In this document: positions 14,089-60,156 of the stretch, in pieces
Numbering within the stretch: the first letter of the stretch is position 1
Layout of the letters: each line of letters opens with the position of its first letter
IMG/VR virus record: IMGVR_UViG_3300042935_001404
DNA: 64,000 bases
Origin: a virus
Taxonomy: Duplodnaviria > Caudoviricetes
Reading direction: 5' to 3' (one strand)
The notes under the pieces: generated by a model
What the model was told of the DNA's origin: nothing
Databases searched by the model: none
Seen by the model: the letters and a program-made list of their open reading frames with translations, nothing else
Translations under genes and position numbers: made by a program

Positions 14089-14367
14089 TTATTTGGCTTT
14101 GGGCTGAGTAGTTTGGTAAGCCTTCATGATGCCTTCACCAAACTTGGTGTAGTCAAATTTCATTGCTTCTTGCATGGCTTTGGTAGATTCGGAAACCAAA
14201 GTAGTTATGGTTTCGGAACCGACTTTGGCGGCTTTTTTGGTATAATTGGCCTGCTCATCAATGAACGTGTTCATTGCGTCTGCTACCTTTTCATTTTGGA
14301 CAAATGTCTTAACGAATTGTTTTTTGCTGTTTTGTACAGCGTCGATTGATGCGTCTAGTGTAAACAT
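14089..14367 (-). CDS. Phasin-like protein (PHA granule-associated)
   Basis: 92-aa amphipathic helical protein (DAVQNSKKQFVKTF...FIDEQANYTK); strong leader and RBS; assignment by resemblance. Confidence 0.55.
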   Translation of the reverse strand: MFTLDASIDAVQNSKKQFVKTFVQNEKVADAMNTFIDEQANYTKKAAKVGSETITTLVSESTKAMQEAMKFDYTKFGEGIMKAYQTTQPKAK

Positions 14368-14422
14368 AATTTTCTCCTATTAAGCGAGTTTACTATAAGG
14401 CCCGACCTATTCAGCACCTTAT
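14368..14422 (-). promoter_or_regulatory. Conserved structured leader (bulged-G hairpin + AACTYGCTTA + SD), copy 1
   Basis: ATAAGG-TGC-TGA ATAGG TCG-GG-CCTTAT ... AAACTCGCTTAATAGGAGAAAA. Confidence 0.7.
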
Positions 14423-14436
14423 GTTCTATTGTAACA

Positions 14437-29773: not shown

Positions 29774-30565
29774 ATGCAAATGACATTTGATTTAATTTCT
29801 GACTTACATCTAGGCCCTACGGACACATTTGATTGGACTGGATTGGCCACTAGTCCATTTTGCGTTGTTGCTGGTGATATTTCCATGGATGTTGAAATAG
29901 TGAAAGAAACGTTGGAGCATCTTGGCCAATGTTATCAAGCAGTATTTTATATCGACGGCAACAACGAGCATAGATATAGTTTAGATTCAATTTCGGGCAG
30001 TTATAACATATTAGAAGAAGCCGTTGCTGGAATAGAAAATGTAGTGTTTTTGCAAGACAATTGTGTGATTGTTAATAATGTTGCATTTGTTGGCACCAAT
30101 GGTTGGTGGACATATGATTTAGATCCGAGTATTGATGATGAACAATGCAGATTATGGTATTGCGATATTATGGATGTCAGCATGCCTGTTACCAGTGCTA
30201 TATACAGTATGGCGTATAACGATGTCGCTTACTTGAGAAACAGTATTAAAACCCTTCAAACACATCCAGATGTTACGTCCATTGTTCTTGTCACACACAC
30301 TGTTCCAACTGTAGATTTAATCGATCATGACATGGAAATTACGTCAACTTATAAGTTTAATGTAATGGGAAATTCTCTAATGCAATTGGCACTGGATGGC
30401 GATACAGAAAACAAAGTTAAAACATGGTGCTTTGGACATTACCACAATCCCATTGATCAGCATCAAAATGGCATTAGATACGTGAACAATTGCCGAGGCA
30501 GAGTTGAAGATTCTACAGAATGGACTCCAACATATTACCCCAAGCGCATTGTTATTGATCTTTAA
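29774..30565 (+). CDS. Calcineurin-like metallophosphoesterase
   Basis: SDLH, AGD, GNNEH, VTH, FGHYH. Confidence 0.9.
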   Translation: MQMTFDLISDLHLGPTDTFDWTGLATSPFCVVAGDISMDVEIVKETLEHLGQCYQAVFYIDGNNEHRYSLDSISGSYNILEEAVAGIENVVFLQDNCVIVNNVAFVGTNGWWTYDLDPSIDDEQCRLWYCDIMDVSMPVTSAIYSMAYNDVAYLRNSIKTLQTHPDVTSIVLVTHTVPTVDLIDHDMEITSTYKFNVMGNSLMQLALDGDTENKVKTWCFGHYHNPIDQHQNGIRYVNNCRGRVEDSTEWTPTYYPKRIVIDL

Positions 30566-30867
30566 CGCAAAGTTTCAGGTTCTAGTTTAATCTGCAACGG
30601 ATAATCGTTACTGCGAGCATCCAGTGTGACTTCGATGCCTTTTTGTTCGGCAATTTCATACGGCAAGATTGCAACAACTGCAGACCCAGAATTATGAATA
30701 TCTTCTGTAATTGTTACAGCAGTTTCTGCGGTGTATTCAAAGTGTTGTATCAAACTTTCAACTACAAAATCCACAGATGTTTTGTTGTCATTCAAGTAGA
30801 TAATTTTGAATAATGGTGGCTCACGCAATTCTACTTTTGATTTTGACACTGTATTTGTATCTGCCAT
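30562..30867 (-). CDS. clpS: Clp protease adaptor ClpS
   Basis: PPLFKIIYLNDNKTSVDFV...IHNSGSAVV...YEIAEQK...YPLQ. Confidence 0.92.
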   Translation of the reverse strand: MADTNTVSKSKVELREPPLFKIIYLNDNKTSVDFVVESLIQHFEYTAETAVTITEDIHNSGSAVVAILPYEIAEQKGIEVTLDARSNDYPLQIKLEPETLR

Positions 30868-30883
30868 TTTATATCCTTTATTA

Positions 30884-30906
30884 TGTGGGGGCACCGCGCC
30901 CCCACA
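30884..30906 (-). promoter_or_regulatory. GC-rich hairpin in clpS leader, downstream of TAAATA motif
   Basis: TGTGGGGGC-ACCGC-GCCCCCACA. Confidence 0.6.
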
Positions 30907-30921
30907 GTATTTACTATTATA

Positions 30922-31380
30922 TTAAGAAGTGTAAGTGATTGCAATAGCCTTTGGCCGGGCTTCTTCAGGAACTTCACGTCGTAGGTGAATGCTCAAGATA
31001 CCAAGTTCAAGATGTGCATTGCTGATTTCCACATGATCTGCCAGCTGGAATTCTCTGCGGAAACTACGCTCACTAATGCCTTTGTGTAAAAATGTATAAG
31101 AGGCATCAGGTGATTCTACAGTTTCGGCACTGTGTTTGCCTTCAATGATCAAGAACTTTTTGTCCTTGGTAACTGAAAGGTTGTCAGGGCCAAAGCCAGC
31201 CACAGCCACACTGATCATGTACTCGTCTTCATTCACTTGTACAATGTTATAAGGTGGATAGTTAGTGGTGGATTGTTGAGCACTCACACGCATGAGTTCA
31301 TCAAACATGTTGTCAAATCCGATACCAAATTTGTGAATTGCGGGAATATCAAAACTGCGAAGTGTTAATGTTTTAGTCAT
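30922..31380 (-). CDS. Small heat-shock protein (IbpA/Hsp20)
   Basis: NYPPYNI, AVAGF, LHKGISERSFRREFQLA, GILSI. Confidence 0.95.
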   Translation of the reverse strand: MTKTLTLRSFDIPAIHKFGIGFDNMFDELMRVSAQQSTTNYPPYNIVQVNEDEYMISVAVAGFGPDNLSVTKDKKFLIIEGKHSAETVESPDASYTFLHKGISERSFRREFQLADHVEISNAHLELGILSIHLRREVPEEARPKAIAITYTS

Positions 31381-31443
31381 TTGTTTTCTCCTTTATTAAG
31401 CAAGTTGACTATACTGTGTGGACCCGACCATCGGCATCCACAC
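31381..31443 (-). promoter_or_regulatory. Conserved structured leader, copy 2
   Basis: GTGTGGA-TGC-CGA TGG TCG-GG-TCCACAC ... CAACTTGCTTAATAAAGGAGAAAA. Confidence 0.75.
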
Positions 31444-31449
31444 GTATTT

Positions 31450-31478
31450 ATTATAACAAGATCAAATTATCTTGTCAA
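31450..31478 (-). promoter_or_regulatory. sigma70 promoter overlapping late TAAATA for hsp20
   Basis: TTGACA-17-TATAAT followed directly by AAATA. Confidence 0.75.
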
Positions 31479-33125
<1,647 letters not shown>

Positions 33126-33422
33126 TTATTCTCCTTTATTTACAATTGCCATTACATCGGTTTCGTACACGATGTTAAATTCTTCGTTGTCGACTTTGAC
33201 TTTTTGCACAGCAGTCTTGCTGAACAAAACACGATCGCCAACTTTAACTACCATTGGTACCAGTTTGCCATCTTCGGCAATACGGCCAAGGCCAACAGCA
33301 AGCACATCACCCTGGCTGGGTTTTTCTGCTGCCGCATCTGGAATAATTAGACCACTGGCAGTTTTAGTTTCTGCCTCGATCAAACGCACAACAATGCGAT
33401 CACGGATAGGGATTAATTTCAT
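33126..33422 (-). CDS. groS: Co-chaperonin GroES
   Basis: [33 protein letters not shown]. Confidence 0.97.
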
Positions 33423-33455
33423 AGTTTTTCCTTATAATAAATGAATCAATAGAAT

Positions 33456-33484
33456 AGTATAACATAGGCCGATGGCTATGTCAA
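33456..33484 (-). promoter_or_regulatory. sigma70 promoter of groES-groEL
   Basis: TTGACA-17-TATACT; spacer is an imperfect palindrome. Confidence 0.75.
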
Positions 33485-33503
33485 CTGAACTGGGTTAAAA
33501 AGG

Positions 33504-33548
33504 TTATGTGCTGATGCTGTGATCAGGTGGTGACAGGTTTTTGATCAT
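33504..33548 (-). CDS. 14-codon micro-ORF MIKNLSPPDHSIST (not in ORF track)
   Basis: Perfect TATAAATA (33605-33612), leader hairpin and AAAGGAGA RBS directly upstream. Confidence 0.5.
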   Translation of the reverse strand: MIKNLSPPDHSIST

Positions 33549-33612
33549 TTTTTCTCCTTTAATAAGCAAGTTAATGTGATGTAGCCCCGAAGGCACTACA
33601 AAGATATTTATA
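33549..33612 (-). promoter_or_regulatory. Late promoter plus conserved structured leader, copy 3
   Basis: TATAAATA...TGTAG-TGC-C TTCG G-GG-CTACA...TAACTTGCTTATTAAAGGAGAAAA. Confidence 0.75.
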
Positions 33613-33630
33613 CCAAGAAATCAGAAACCG

Positions 33631-34830
33631 TTAAGAATTTTGTTGTTCTAGGTTAATGGGTGTAGCGACTTGTGTTTTATCAATGGCAATTTTTAAAATA
33701 TTTCGTGATTGATAATCTTTTAAGTTGTACATATGGGGTAGTAGTACTCGTTCAAGTTCTGTGTGCAATCCGCGAGCACCTGTTTTTGTGGTAATTGTAC
33801 GTTCTGCAATCAAGTCTATACTGTCGGCATCAAAGTCCAGGGCCACACCATCCTGGTTAAACAACCATCTGTACTGACTGACCAAGTTGTTTTTTACTTC
33901 TGTTAAAATAGTAATAAGTTGAGATTTGGTCAGTTCTTCCAACTGTATAATAGATGGGAACCGTCCCACAAACTCTGGAATCATTCCGTAACGTACCAGA
34001 TCGTCGGGTGTGATTGCTTCGGATACAGTTTCTTTGACAGTGCTGGCGCCAAACCCAATCGACGTGCCTTGTGTACGTGCTTTAATCACTTTGTCTAGTC
34101 CAACAAATGCACCACCTACAATAAACAGTATGTTGGCAGTGTCAATGTCAATTGTTTCACTGCTGGATGTTTTGCGCACTCCTTGATTTGGCACTTTACA
34201 ACGTGTGCCTTCGATCAGTTTAAGCAGTGCTTGTTGAACACCTTCGCCACTCACATCACGTGATACAGTACTGCTTTCACCTTTGCGAGCAATCTTATCT
34301 ACTTCGTCAAGAAAGACGATTCCACGTTGTGTGCGTTCAACATCGTTGCCGCTGGCGTGATACAATCTAGCAATCAAACTGTCAACATCGTCACCTACAT
34401 AGCCTGCTTCTGTCAGCGTTGTGGCATCTGCAATGACAAAAGGCACATCCAGGTATTTGGCCACTGTGCGAGCCATCAATGTTTTACCTGTGCCGGTTGG
34501 GCCGGTCATCAAGATGTTGGCTTTTTGTATTTCGTTTTCAGGATCTGCATTGCCAATACGTTTGTAGTGATTGGCAATTGCTACACTTAACACAATCTTG
34601 GCAGTGGTCTGGCCAATCACATATTGGTCCAGATACCGGTGTATTTCACGTGGATCTAACACTGACTCTGTTGTGGGTTTCTTGTCATGTTCTTTTGACA
34701 ACAGCAGTCCGTGACAGAATTCCACGCACTCGTTGCATATGCCAACATTGTGTCCTACAATTAGTTTGCCCACTTGATCTTTGTGCTTGTTACAAAAATT
34801 ACAATGCGTGGGTGTTGTTTTAGCGATCAT
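33631..34830 (-). CDS. clpX: ClpX ATPase
   Basis: C4 zinc finger CNFC...CNEC, GPTGTGKT, EAGYVGDDV, DEVDK, GVQQALL, IGF loop. Confidence 0.96.
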   Translation of the reverse strand: MIAKTTPTHCNFCNKHKDQVGKLIVGHNVGICNECVEFCHGLLLSKEHDKKPTTESVLDPREIHRYLDQYVIGQTTAKIVLSVAIANHYKRIGNADPENEIQKANILMTGPTGTGKTLMARTVAKYLDVPFVIADATTLTEAGYVGDDVDSLIARLYHASGNDVERTQRGIVFLDEVDKIARKGESSTVSRDVSGEGVQQALLKLIEGTRCKVPNQGVRKTSSSETIDIDTANILFIVGGAFVGLDKVIKARTQGTSIGFGASTVKETVSEAITPDDLVRYGMIPEFVGRFPSIIQLEELTKSQLITILTEVKNNLVSQYRWLFNQDGVALDFDADSIDLIAERTITTKTGARGLHTELERVLLPHMYNLKDYQSRNILKIAIDKTQVATPINLEQQNS

Positions 34831-34831
34831 T

Positions 34832-36427
34832 TTATTGTCCGGTCAAACGGCGTTCAATTTGTTCTTGTTCTGCTTCGCTCAACAGATCTGGATCGTATTC
34901 TCCCGAATCAATTTTCACAATCAAGTGATCAATGTAGGCTTCATTGTACGCATAGCGATTGTTTAATTGCTTGTCTACCTCTATCCAATTATTTCCATTG
35001 TACTTGTACAGTACACTTGGCAACCGATCAACACGCAAGAAAGTATCGCCTTTCTTTGGACTCAACGGAAATGACGTCCCGAATCCAGTGGTGTTTTCTT
35101 TTGCAGGTGCGTTGTCAGGAGTTGGTCCTAGGTAGTATTTGGAAGACATCCAAGGTAGCGTATCAATCTTACCAATTTCGTACAAACGTTGCTGAGTTTT
35201 TAATGTTTGTCCAGGATTTTCTTCTTTCCATCGACGTGCGGCTGTTTTGGCTTCAGCATCCATTCCGTCCAGGTGATCATCTTCTGTATCGAGTGCTTGA
35301 ATATCGGTGGCAACGACATTCGTGTTGACTTCTTCTGTTTTAACAATCCTGTCAGTAGGAACTTCTGCCACGGGTAAATCTTCGTTTGCGTCATGTTGCT
35401 CTCCATTTGTGTTACAATCTTTGTTGGGACAAAATAGTCCAATGCCTGGTGCGTCTACTAGTGTGGTGCCACATTTGGCACAGTCAATAGCAGTGTCTTC
35501 TGGAAACAAGGTGCTTTTAACAACCAGGTCTCCAGTTGGTAAATCTTTTACTAGGTCTTGTAGCTGTTCAATTTGTTCATCACTGAGTGGACCGTCATCT
35601 GCTTTGTACTTTTTTTCTCTGTTCCACTTTAGACTCTCAGTGGCAGCCAACAGCATCATGATGGCCAATGGATCAAACACTGTGACCAATATTATAATAA
35701 CCCAACGAACTGCTTTTTCTAATAGATTAGTGTCAGGGTTGTCACCATAGATAAGTGCGGCTATGTATTTGATAGGGCCAACTTCGGCTTCTACTTTGCG
35801 CACTTCAGCCGCGATGGGCGCACGTTGTTCGTTGAGTGCTGTGATTTTTTGTTGTGCTGTTGCAATGTCTGCAAGGAGGCGAGCACGTTCTTTCTGCTGG
35901 GTTCTGCGTATGCTGACAGCTTTGTCTGCCCCTTTTTCGTCCTGACTGCGACCCATAACTTGGTCCACAGCCTCATCCATCTGTTTGAGAGCTTTGCGAT
36001 TAGCATCTATGTTTTCTTTTTCGACCTTGATCTTCTCGTCATACAAAGCAATTTTGGCTTGTACATCACCGGATACCATACCTTGGTCCATGTGTGCCTT
36101 TGAAAGGAATCCAAAGATGCCCATACTAGTGATGACCATAAGCATAAACACTGCTGGCACCAGGTAAACCTTCATTAACCAGCGGCATTGACGCCAGTAT
36201 TCATGCAGCCACAGTGTGACTACAATTTTTGCCAGTTCCAGGATGCCGCCCATGATTATAATAGGCACCACAGCGGCAGCAAATATGGCCGCAAGCCCTG
36301 CAATAGAATACCAAGCCGCAATAACCGACAGGCTCAATGCTACTGCTAACGTAATCAAACTTAGAAACATAATGTAATATTTATCTATGTTAGTTCCATG
36401 TCCGGTGTACTTCGGCAATCCACTCAC
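34832..36427 (-). CDS. Membrane protein with coiled coil, CxxC...CxxxxC zinc ribbon and C-terminal repeat-like domain (likely start 36370)
   Basis: 3 N-terminal TM, FDPLAI motif, CAKC...CPNKDC. Confidence 0.75.
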   Translation of the reverse strand: MSGLPKYTGHGTNIDKYYIMFLSLITLAVALSLSVIAAWYSIAGLAAIFAAAVVPIIIMGGILELAKIVVTLWLHEYWRQCRWLMKVYLVPAVFMLMVITSMGIFGFLSKAHMDQGMVSGDVQAKIALYDEKIKVEKENIDANRKALKQMDEAVDQVMGRSQDEKGADKAVSIRRTQQKERARLLADIATAQQKITALNEQRAPIAAEVRKVEAEVGPIKYIAALIYGDNPDTNLLEKAVRWVIIILVTVFDPLAIMMLLAATESLKWNREKKYKADDGPLSDEQIEQLQDLVKDLPTGDLVVKSTLFPEDTAIDCAKCGTTLVDAPGIGLFCPNKDCNTNGEQHDANEDLPVAEVPTDRIVKTEEVNTNVVATDIQALDTEDDHLDGMDAEAKTAARRWKEENPGQTLKTQQRLYEIGKIDTLPWMSSKYYLGPTPDNAPAKENTTGFGTSFPLSPKKGDTFLRVDRLPSVLYKYNGNNWIEVDKQLNNRYAYNEAYIDHLIVKIDSGEYDPDLLSEAEQEQIERRLTGQ

Positions 36428-59676: not shown

Positions 59677-60087
59677 TTAGTTTGTGAATGTTGCTGTAGC
59701 GGCTGTGGTAACAGCGTAGCCTAGTGAAGCAGTCAATGCCACATCTAGATCTTCACCGTTGGCATAGTTCCATGCACCAGTTGGGTATGTGGCCAAGGCC
59801 AATGTAGCTTGGTTAGAACCCACTGTGGTGAATTCATACATAGCGATTGTGCATTTAGTTTGAATAGTCAAGAATGCAATGCCCAATGAAGTAGCACTTA
59901 CAGTAGCGTTACCAGTGAAAGTAACTGTACCGAAGTCTAACTTAGGACCTGCAACGTTAACTGTTGCGCCACTGGTTACTGTGTTAGCACCACTGTTCCA
60001 GCCTGCGCCAGGTGACGAAGGAACTGTACCAGCATCCATGTTGACAACTGGTTCAAAGTTGCCGTTTACTTGTGTAATATAAGCCAT
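59677..60087 (-). CDS. Probable virion structural protein (head decoration-like)
   Basis: A/T/G-rich 136 aa; late promoter, AAGGAG RBS, own terminator. Confidence 0.55.
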   Translation of the reverse strand: MAYITQVNGNFEPVVNMDAGTVPSSPGAGWNSGANTVTSGATVNVAGPKLDFGTVTFTGNATVSATSLGIAFLTIQTKCTIAMYEFTTVGSNQATLALATYPTGAWNYANGEDLDVALTASLGYAVTTAATATFTN

Positions 60088-60156
60088 TTAAAATCTCCTT
60101 AGTGTATGGTCGCTTTGGACCTGCATTTATTTATGCCGTAAGGAAAAAAACTCCGG

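Follow-up and report, generated by a model that had tools for sequence, protein, structure and literature searches.

In the DNA of a giant freshwater phage analysed here (the window, a stretch of 64,000 nucleotides from IMG/VR record IMGVR_UViG_3300042935_001404), clpX and groES are separated by a small regulatory cassette in which a structured leader RNA precedes an ORF of 14 codons. This micro-ORF is most likely a regulatory leader ORF and not a gene for a useful peptide. Regarding its mode of action, we give about an even chance to the reading that the ORF is gated by a thermosensor-like hairpin and passes late or heat control to those groESL transcripts that start upstream of the groES promoter. 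The cassette is a variant that combines two known kinds of element, a ROSE-like thermometer and a leader-ORF relay.

Every gene of the region is carried by the minus strand, and the gap between clpX and groES measures 208 nt. All the elements that an earlier note on this DNA had listed in the gap are present there, on the minus strand and between these two genes:

33631..34830, minus strand: clpX (Pfam ClpX zinc finger and AAA_2), upstream of the cassette and in the same orientation, with its stop codon at 33633-33631.
33605..33612, minus strand: P1, a T4-type late-promoter-like element TATAAATA, an exact match to the consensus, with a poor -35 box (TTAACG, 33634-33629) and a spacer of 16.
33580..33600, minus strand: hairpin 1, the 5'-terminal stem-loop of the leader, found by folding, with a G/G internal loop and a UUCG loop.
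33554..33570, minus strand: hairpin 2, ROSE-like, in which CUU-G-CUU pairs with AAGGAG of the micro-ORF Shine-Dalgarno (alignment of model R1).
33557-33554, minus strand: Shine-Dalgarno GGAG of the micro-ORF, within AAAGGAGA and 5 bases ahead of the ATG at 33548.
33504..33548, minus strand: the 14-codon ORF and its TAA stop, from the ATG at 33548 to the end at 33504.
33511..33526, minus strand: hairpin 3, within the ORF, with a 5 bp stem and a 6-nt loop.
33497..33503, minus strand: pyrimidine tract CCUUUUU (DNA CCTTTTT), anti-Shine-Dalgarno-like, directly 3' of the stop codon.
33485..33548, minus strand: C-rich, G-poor tract of rut-like composition (C 31%, G 11%; top 0.4% of same-length windows).
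33456..33484, minus strand: P2, the own sigma70 promoter of groES, TTGACA-17-TATACT (11/12 matches plus a TG extension), with an inverted repeat in the spacer.
33422-33126, minus strand: groES (Pfam Cpn10), downstream of the cassette, with its ATG at 33422.
33122-31479, minus strand: groEL (Pfam Cpn60_TCP1), downstream of the cassette.
31380-30922, minus strand: hsp20.
30894-30562, minus strand: clpS.

A search for terminator-like sites between clpX and groES found neither an intrinsic terminator nor an attenuator. Together with a gene for a 531-aa membrane-like protein, clpX, groES, groEL, hsp20 and clpS form a compact proteostasis cluster (30562-36427, minus strand), and clpP is absent within this interval. 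Searches of IMG/VR with ClpX and GroES returned many relatives, located on contigs of 317-364 kb with terminal repeats; they are giant phages from environmental metagenomes, and the related genomes measure about 340 kb. In several cassette-bearing relatives, a bS21 gene and a small ORF lie between clpX and the cassette. A bS21-like ribosomal protein gene follows clpX directly and overlaps its stop codon in L015 (7176-7400), L016, L017, L028 (7199-7423), L060, and L214-L216, a call made by eye from the translation (C-terminus K-K-L-Y, basic RKRK stretch).

The leader of the micro-ORF belongs to a family of structured RNAs. Covariance model R1 was built from 16 hsp20 and dnaK leaders of other phages, with the promoter and all micro-ORF copies left out, and in the window it detects the hsp20 leader (64 bits), the leader of the micro-ORF (46.2 bits, E 9e-8, match at 33604-33546), and a third copy (31.5 bits). 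Since this score was reached with a model built without micro-ORF copies, and since hairpin 1 covaries, the micro-ORF leader is a true member of the family. Among 53 distinct sequences, hairpin 1 carries compensatory changes in eight of its nine pairs and is paired in 99% of cells, while hairpin 2 (UUGCU at 33569-33565, with the bulged G at 33567) is paired in 94% and almost invariant. The 23 bases ahead of the micro-ORF ATG are nearly identical to those ahead of hsp20. The two further copies in the window are as follows:

31378..31446, minus strand: paralogous leader before hsp20, matched by Rfam ROSE_3 (E 8e-4) and sharing the 23-nt box with the micro-ORF leader.
14365..14425, minus strand: third leader copy, preceding a 92-aa protein, in the same arrangement as in related genomes.

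Over 90 sources, R1 finds 76 leader copies, and five whole related genomes contain just 2-3 copies each, before hsp20, before the ~90-aa protein and, in genomes that have it, before the micro-ORF. Additional contexts are dnaK (L028) and groES itself, to which the leader is joined directly (L222/L223/L288). The family is confined to stress-protein contexts, and what precedes the micro-ORF is a particular structured RNA instead of a general late leader. The conserved hairpin and ribosome-binding site reported in the earlier note are indeed there, but they do not constitute a common late leader, given the 2-3 copies per complete related genome. The description of the leader as strong was a misreading, as it resembles a repressing RNA thermometer of the ROSE type and not a strong constitutive leader.

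A regular-expression scan of all fetched loci showed hsp20 preceded by ATAAATA, a hairpin, a CTTGCTT box, AAGGAG, and ATG in about 50 contigs, many of which are unrelated and were recruited by a loose DNA pattern only. The scan of viral contigs with that loose pattern was set aside as yielding mostly chance matches, and by surprise it recruited unrelated contigs with the leader before hsp20. In L028 (7457-9909), clpX, bS21, and a leader with dnaK (626 aa) are followed by a second leader, located right after the dnaK stop and without a promoter, and then by hsp20 and clpS; thus, the leader also works inside an operon. The third copy (14089-14425 of the window, minus strand; also L369-L373) always stands ahead of a protein of 80-93 aa, for which no Pfam or PHROG family was found; its earlier designation as a phasin finds no support in Pfam.

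A U(U/C)GCU sequence that blocks the Shine-Dalgarno is the main characteristic of ROSE-like thermometers, among them the ibpA thermometers of Pseudomonas, which are short and have two hairpins (PMC3669281). This hallmark is found in the micro-ORF leader, where UUGCU in the 3'-proximal hairpin is paired imperfectly with the Shine-Dalgarno and a G is bulged. ROSE_3 (RF02523) is the sole credible Rfam match for the leader family; the hsp20 leader of the window scores 31.8 bits, and two orthologous micro-ORF leaders score 35.5 bits (L016) and 33.7 bits (L218). None of the 11 loci reached the gathering score of 43 bits, and formal ROSE_3 membership was not assigned because the scores lie below this cut-off; the micro-ORF leader of the window itself gave no Rfam match at E<=10. 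Between 5 C and 42 C, the predicted probability that the Shine-Dalgarno is unpaired rises from 0.28 to only 0.40 in the micro-ORF leader and from 0.34 to 0.60 in the hsp20 copy, and hairpin 2 is predicted to melt gradually.

The likeness to ROSE-like thermometers of the Pseudomonas ibpA type (RF02523; PMC3669281) extends to the two-hairpin architecture, with a compensatory G-C/C-G pair in hairpin I, to the 3' hairpin with U(U/C)GCU opposite the Shine-Dalgarno and a bulged G, and to the association with small heat-shock protein genes. In contrast to those thermometers, the putative thermometer described here is phage-encoded, scores below the Rfam gathering cut-off, and stands behind a promoter of the sigma70 or T4-late type instead of a sigma32 promoter. 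The location in the 5' UTR of a small-Hsp gene applies to the hsp20 paralog and not to the micro-ORF copy, whose target would be a 14-codon ORF ahead of groESL instead of a chaperone gene. The leader resembles ROSE_3 in form and probably in function, and we infer that it may sense temperature. The hsp20 leader (31378-31460, minus strand) also gives a weak match to the Rfam freshwater-2 motif (21.8 bits, E 4), the 3' end of which is identical to the stretch from the Shine-Dalgarno to the ATG of this leader; the freshwater-2 motif may come from leaders of related phages.

The promoter ahead of the leader was described in the earlier note as a perfect late promoter, and this holds in part. The match to the motif is exact, but the window contains the 8-mer TATAAATA a single time, a frequency not above chance, so enrichment of the exact motif was rejected as an argument, leaving the positions of ATAAATA as the only informative test. 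This core has 11 sites in the window, seven of them in non-coding DNA, which makes up 6.5% of the window, and it is found without a -35 box ahead of a PAAR gene and of a virion structural protein gene. A homologue of the gp55 family (the T4 late sigma) is present in each of three complete related genomes (phrog_234, E ~1e-23). From the non-coding placement of ATAAATA and these homologues, it is plausible to read P1 as a T4-type late promoter. The similarity to T4 late promoters, in which gp55 reads TATAAATA some 6-8 bases ahead of the start of transcription, consists in the exact consensus and in the presence of a gp55-family sigma in related genomes. It differs in that, in most relatives, the same motif has TTGACA 17 bases ahead of it and doubles as the -10 element of a good sigma70 promoter; unlike those, the window copy has a poor -35 box. 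The gp55-like frames are also longer than T4 gp55 (310-340 aa vs 185 aa; L377, L378, and L379 of genomes G003, G001, and G004), and the match covers positions 22-137 of the profile only. At 60087-60135 and 1818-1880 of the window (minus strand), a small GC-rich hairpin lies just a few bases behind ATAAATA and ahead of the ribosome-binding site, and a 5' stem-loop may be a general feature of late transcripts in this phage.

One explanation of the cassette would need only such a promoter and a 5' stabiliser: the hairpin and the ribosome-loading site would protect late groESL mRNA against decay, without sensing or relay. The position of hairpin 1 at the predicted 5' end of the transcript, the gp55-family sigma of the relatives, and the small hairpins behind other ATAAATA sites agree with it. 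This explanation nevertheless leaves three things unaccounted for, namely the retention of the ROSE-type anti-Shine-Dalgarno pairing, the limitation of the leader to 2-3 stress-related genes per genome instead of late genes in general, and a conserved motif behind the stop codon of the micro-ORF. We regard it as improbable.

The history of the cassette in related phages bears on whether the micro-ORF has a function. The cassette together with P2 and groES is orthologous in relatives at 62-100% ClpX identity (L001, L002, L010/L285, L015, L016, L017, L060, L214-L218, L220, L221, and L286). The micro-ORF occurs in 15 variants of 8-14 codons, all of which retain the Shine-Dalgarno and the ATG; a metagenome scan added three relevant loci only, one without the cassette (L284), one with the same peptide as L010 (L285), and one with a new 8-codon variant (L286). 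Other relatives keep groESL but lack the cassette and have P2 only, in a gap of 58-79 nt (L003-L005, at 96% ClpX identity, L006-L007, L009, and L284). As the end points of the deletions differ in L003, L006, and L009, the cassette was lost at least three times independently. Its repeated loss in close relatives that retain groESL indicates that the cassette is dispensable and forms an optional layer on top of P2. In many further relatives groESL is missing and hsp20 is driven directly by the leader that comes first after clpX, and in distant phages (L222/L288 and L223) the leader is fused straight to groES, with no second promoter.

Where the cassette is kept, its sequence is conserved beyond the neutral expectation, for which the four-fold degenerate sites of clpX and groES served as the yardstick. 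Identity to the window at these sites is 0.66-0.75 in L002, 0.44-0.56 in L010, and about 0.3-0.5 in the distant group. Between the window and L002, the stretch from TATAAATA to the ATG has one difference in 67 nt and the ORF body two in 39 nt (probability if neutral 1e-3 to 2e-5); compared with L010, the ORF body has nine differences in 39 nt (6e-3 to 3e-5). In the group with 8-codon ORFs, the ORF and the 4 nt past its stop show a pairwise identity of 0.89-0.92, vs 0.53 under neutrality, and beyond this point identity falls to 0.53-0.68. Gene conversion does not explain this conservation, since the micro-ORF leaders cluster by orthology and not with the hsp20 leader of their own genome. By these comparisons, the micro-ORF and its initiation region are under selection.

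The same comparisons weigh against the view that the cassette is a recombination scar, in which the leaders are portable regulatory cassettes and the micro-ORF is a functionless leftover of the joining of a P2-groES-groEL module to a leader. Several observations would fit such a scar. Three layouts coexist (clpX-leader-hsp20, clpX-P2-groESL-leader-hsp20, and one in which the cassette is added), groESL is bordered on both sides by leader copies that form direct repeats with a near-identical 23-nt box, deletions end at different points in different lineages, and 8-14 codons is the size of a chance ORF after an ATG in AT-rich DNA. There is also a precedent in the PeSLs of T4-type phages, which are repeated composites of an early promoter and a terminator stem-loop found at indel junctions (PMC2839356, PMC4122927). 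Like PeSL cassettes, the present one is a short regulatory composite that occurs more than once per genome and lies at indel junctions between close relatives. PeSLs, however, have neither a translated ORF nor a hairpin that masks a Shine-Dalgarno, and the association with indels seen here is accompanied by a translated ORF, by 2-3 copies per genome only, and by no terminator, which places the cassette outside that class. A functionless leftover is, moreover, difficult to reconcile with an ORF and initiation region conserved far above neutrality over long divergence and with leaders that group by orthology and were not copied from the hsp20 leader of their own genome.

The earlier note had also considered that the micro-ORF might be the remnant of a deleted gene and had asked whether relatives have a longer gene behind the same leader. 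No long ORF stands behind the orthologous copy in any relative, and local alignments of the ORF body with the 5' ends of groES and hsp20 revealed no significant similarity when compared with shuffles (mean z 0.16 for a groES stub and -0.36 for an hsp20 stub). An origin as a stub of either gene is accordingly unsupported, which also counts against the scar; on balance, we consider a scar unlikely.

If the micro-ORF is under selection, its product might be what matters, with the 14-residue peptide itself acting, for example, on Clp or GroEL. In the sub-lineage of the window there is some room for a constraint on the peptide or for a pause at a Pro-Pro-Asp motif: six of the nine changes relative to L010 fall at third codon positions (hypergeometric p = 0.024), and the first ten codons contain four changes, none of which alters the amino acid. 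Outside this sub-lineage, however, peptides of 8, 11, or 14 residues (range 8-14) occupy the same place behind the same leader and share only Met-x-Lys, a start also found in hsp20 (M-T-K) and DnaK (M-S-K), and those of 8-11 residues in other lineages are unrelated to the peptide of the window. The variable sites of the 8-codon group show no third-position bias, and conservation there runs past the stop codon. Moreover, the nucleotide motif CUGAYC, 18-23 nt after the AUG, is retained in three different reading frames. A functional micro-peptide is therefore very unlikely in our judgment. Of the three options that the earlier note had proposed, a leader peptide controlling read-through into groESL is the best: the ORF and its initiation region are conserved well above neutrality, and the peptide sequence is not conserved between lineages.

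The features that recur are those of the RNA. A small hairpin 16-22 nt after the AUG folds in every variant, from seven different stem sequences, and a U run behind hairpin 3 was seen only in L214-L216. Within 0-12 nt after the stop codon, CUCC, UCCU, or CCUU occurs in 13 of 15 variants, vs 8.4% of background windows. This tetramer is complementary to the Shine-Dalgarno core, and a terminating ribosome would cover it. Between the AUG and the -35 box of P2, C exceeds G by +0.09 to +0.23 in all 15 variants, and on its base composition the tract may be read as rut-like.

Partition-function folding at 25 C gives the post-stop element a probability of 0.5-0.8 of pairing with the groES Shine-Dalgarno in the 8-codon group and in L214. 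The tract of the window is predicted to pair with the Shine-Dalgarno of the micro-ORF itself (0.51) and not with that of groES (0.00), and the predicted partner in L015 is likewise the micro-ORF's own Shine-Dalgarno. A long-range helix that would join the post-stop tract to the Shine-Dalgarno of groES was set aside, as it is predicted in some lineages but not in the window and RNAalifold detected no covariation for it. Read-through of the stop codon into groES was also discarded: the frames match in the window, but two more in-frame stops intervene, and the frames differ in L015.

The explanation that we favour, gating of a leader ORF by a thermosensor-like hairpin, can be set out as follows. 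The cassette is a second copy of the leader of the phage chaperone genes, with its late-type promoter, 5' hairpin, and ROSE-like hairpin masking the Shine-Dalgarno, attached to a short leader ORF in place of a protein gene. Transcripts from P1 or from read-through of clpX would carry the leader and the micro-ORF, followed by groES and groEL, whereas transcripts from P2 would start downstream of the ORF and contain neither. As long as hairpin 2 is closed, the micro-ORF would stay untranslated, and the naked C-rich RNA, together with the anti-Shine-Dalgarno-like tract behind the stop, would hold downstream expression low, with Rho loading on the rut-like tract, Shine-Dalgarno masking, and decay as candidate routes. 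Once warmth or another signal opens hairpin 2, the ORF would be translated, ribosomes would terminate over the post-stop tract, and the block on groESL would be relieved. The timing of promoter use and the coupling step are the parts of this sequence of events that we infer. Only tentatively do we propose the complete wiring, in which a virus RNA thermometer gates the leader ORF and terminating ribosomes that cover the anti-Shine-Dalgarno or rut-like tract switch on a late or read-through chaperonin operon. It could be objected to any such relay that P2 alone could supply enough groESL. The dispensability of the cassette, the pairing predicted for the post-stop tract in the window, the lack of covariation for a long-range helix, the absence of an intrinsic terminator, the gradual melting predicted for hairpin 2, and the sub-threshold Rfam scores likewise speak against it.

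Known leader-ORF relays include tap/repA of plasmid R1, repY/repZ of ColIb-P9, tnaC, and mgtL. As in these systems, a short ORF with its own ribosome-binding site is kept upstream of the regulated gene, here in 15 variants; translation of the ORF, and not its product, would set downstream expression, and an element at or just past the stop codon would be unmasked or shielded. Two differences stand out: the input would be a thermometer-like hairpin instead of an antisense RNA, a metabolite, or a stalling peptide, and the leader ORF is separated from the target by a full sigma70 promoter, with the coupling being putative.

Full-text searches of the literature on phage RNA thermometers, and on thermometers combined with leader peptides or groES, found, among the papers searched, none on a thermometer-gated leader ORF or on such a phage chaperone cluster. 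Giant freshwater phages carry a folding and degradation set of their own (ClpX, GroES/EL, Hsp20, ClpS, and sometimes DnaK), the regulation of which is almost unstudied. If the phage-borne element is truly ROSE-like, the virus itself would sense temperature or folding stress. A thermometer acting through a leader ORF, and not on the chaperone gene directly, would represent a new way of connecting such a sensor with an operon already served by a constitutive promoter, and a relay from a thermosensor to an upstream ORF is not known from any groESL operon. Being small and self-contained, the cassette is testable in a standard reporter strain without phage culture.

Some minor observations concern the groES promoter region. 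P2 is found in all relatives, including those without the cassette, and the groES leader 3' of it extends 33 nt up to the ATG. Folding of this leader (33423-33455, minus strand) predicts a pairing between UUCU and the AGGA of the groES Shine-Dalgarno; the groES leader of L003 is far shorter, and the pairing is thus not conserved. The spacer of P2 (33481-33462) and that of the hsp20 sigma70 promoter (31473-31455) both contain inverted repeats, in which ACA of the -35 box is answered by TGT before the -10 box. The inner bases of these repeats vary among relatives yet remain complementary, with a U-G type change in L220, and the repeats could serve as an operator or form a hairpin in read-through RNA.
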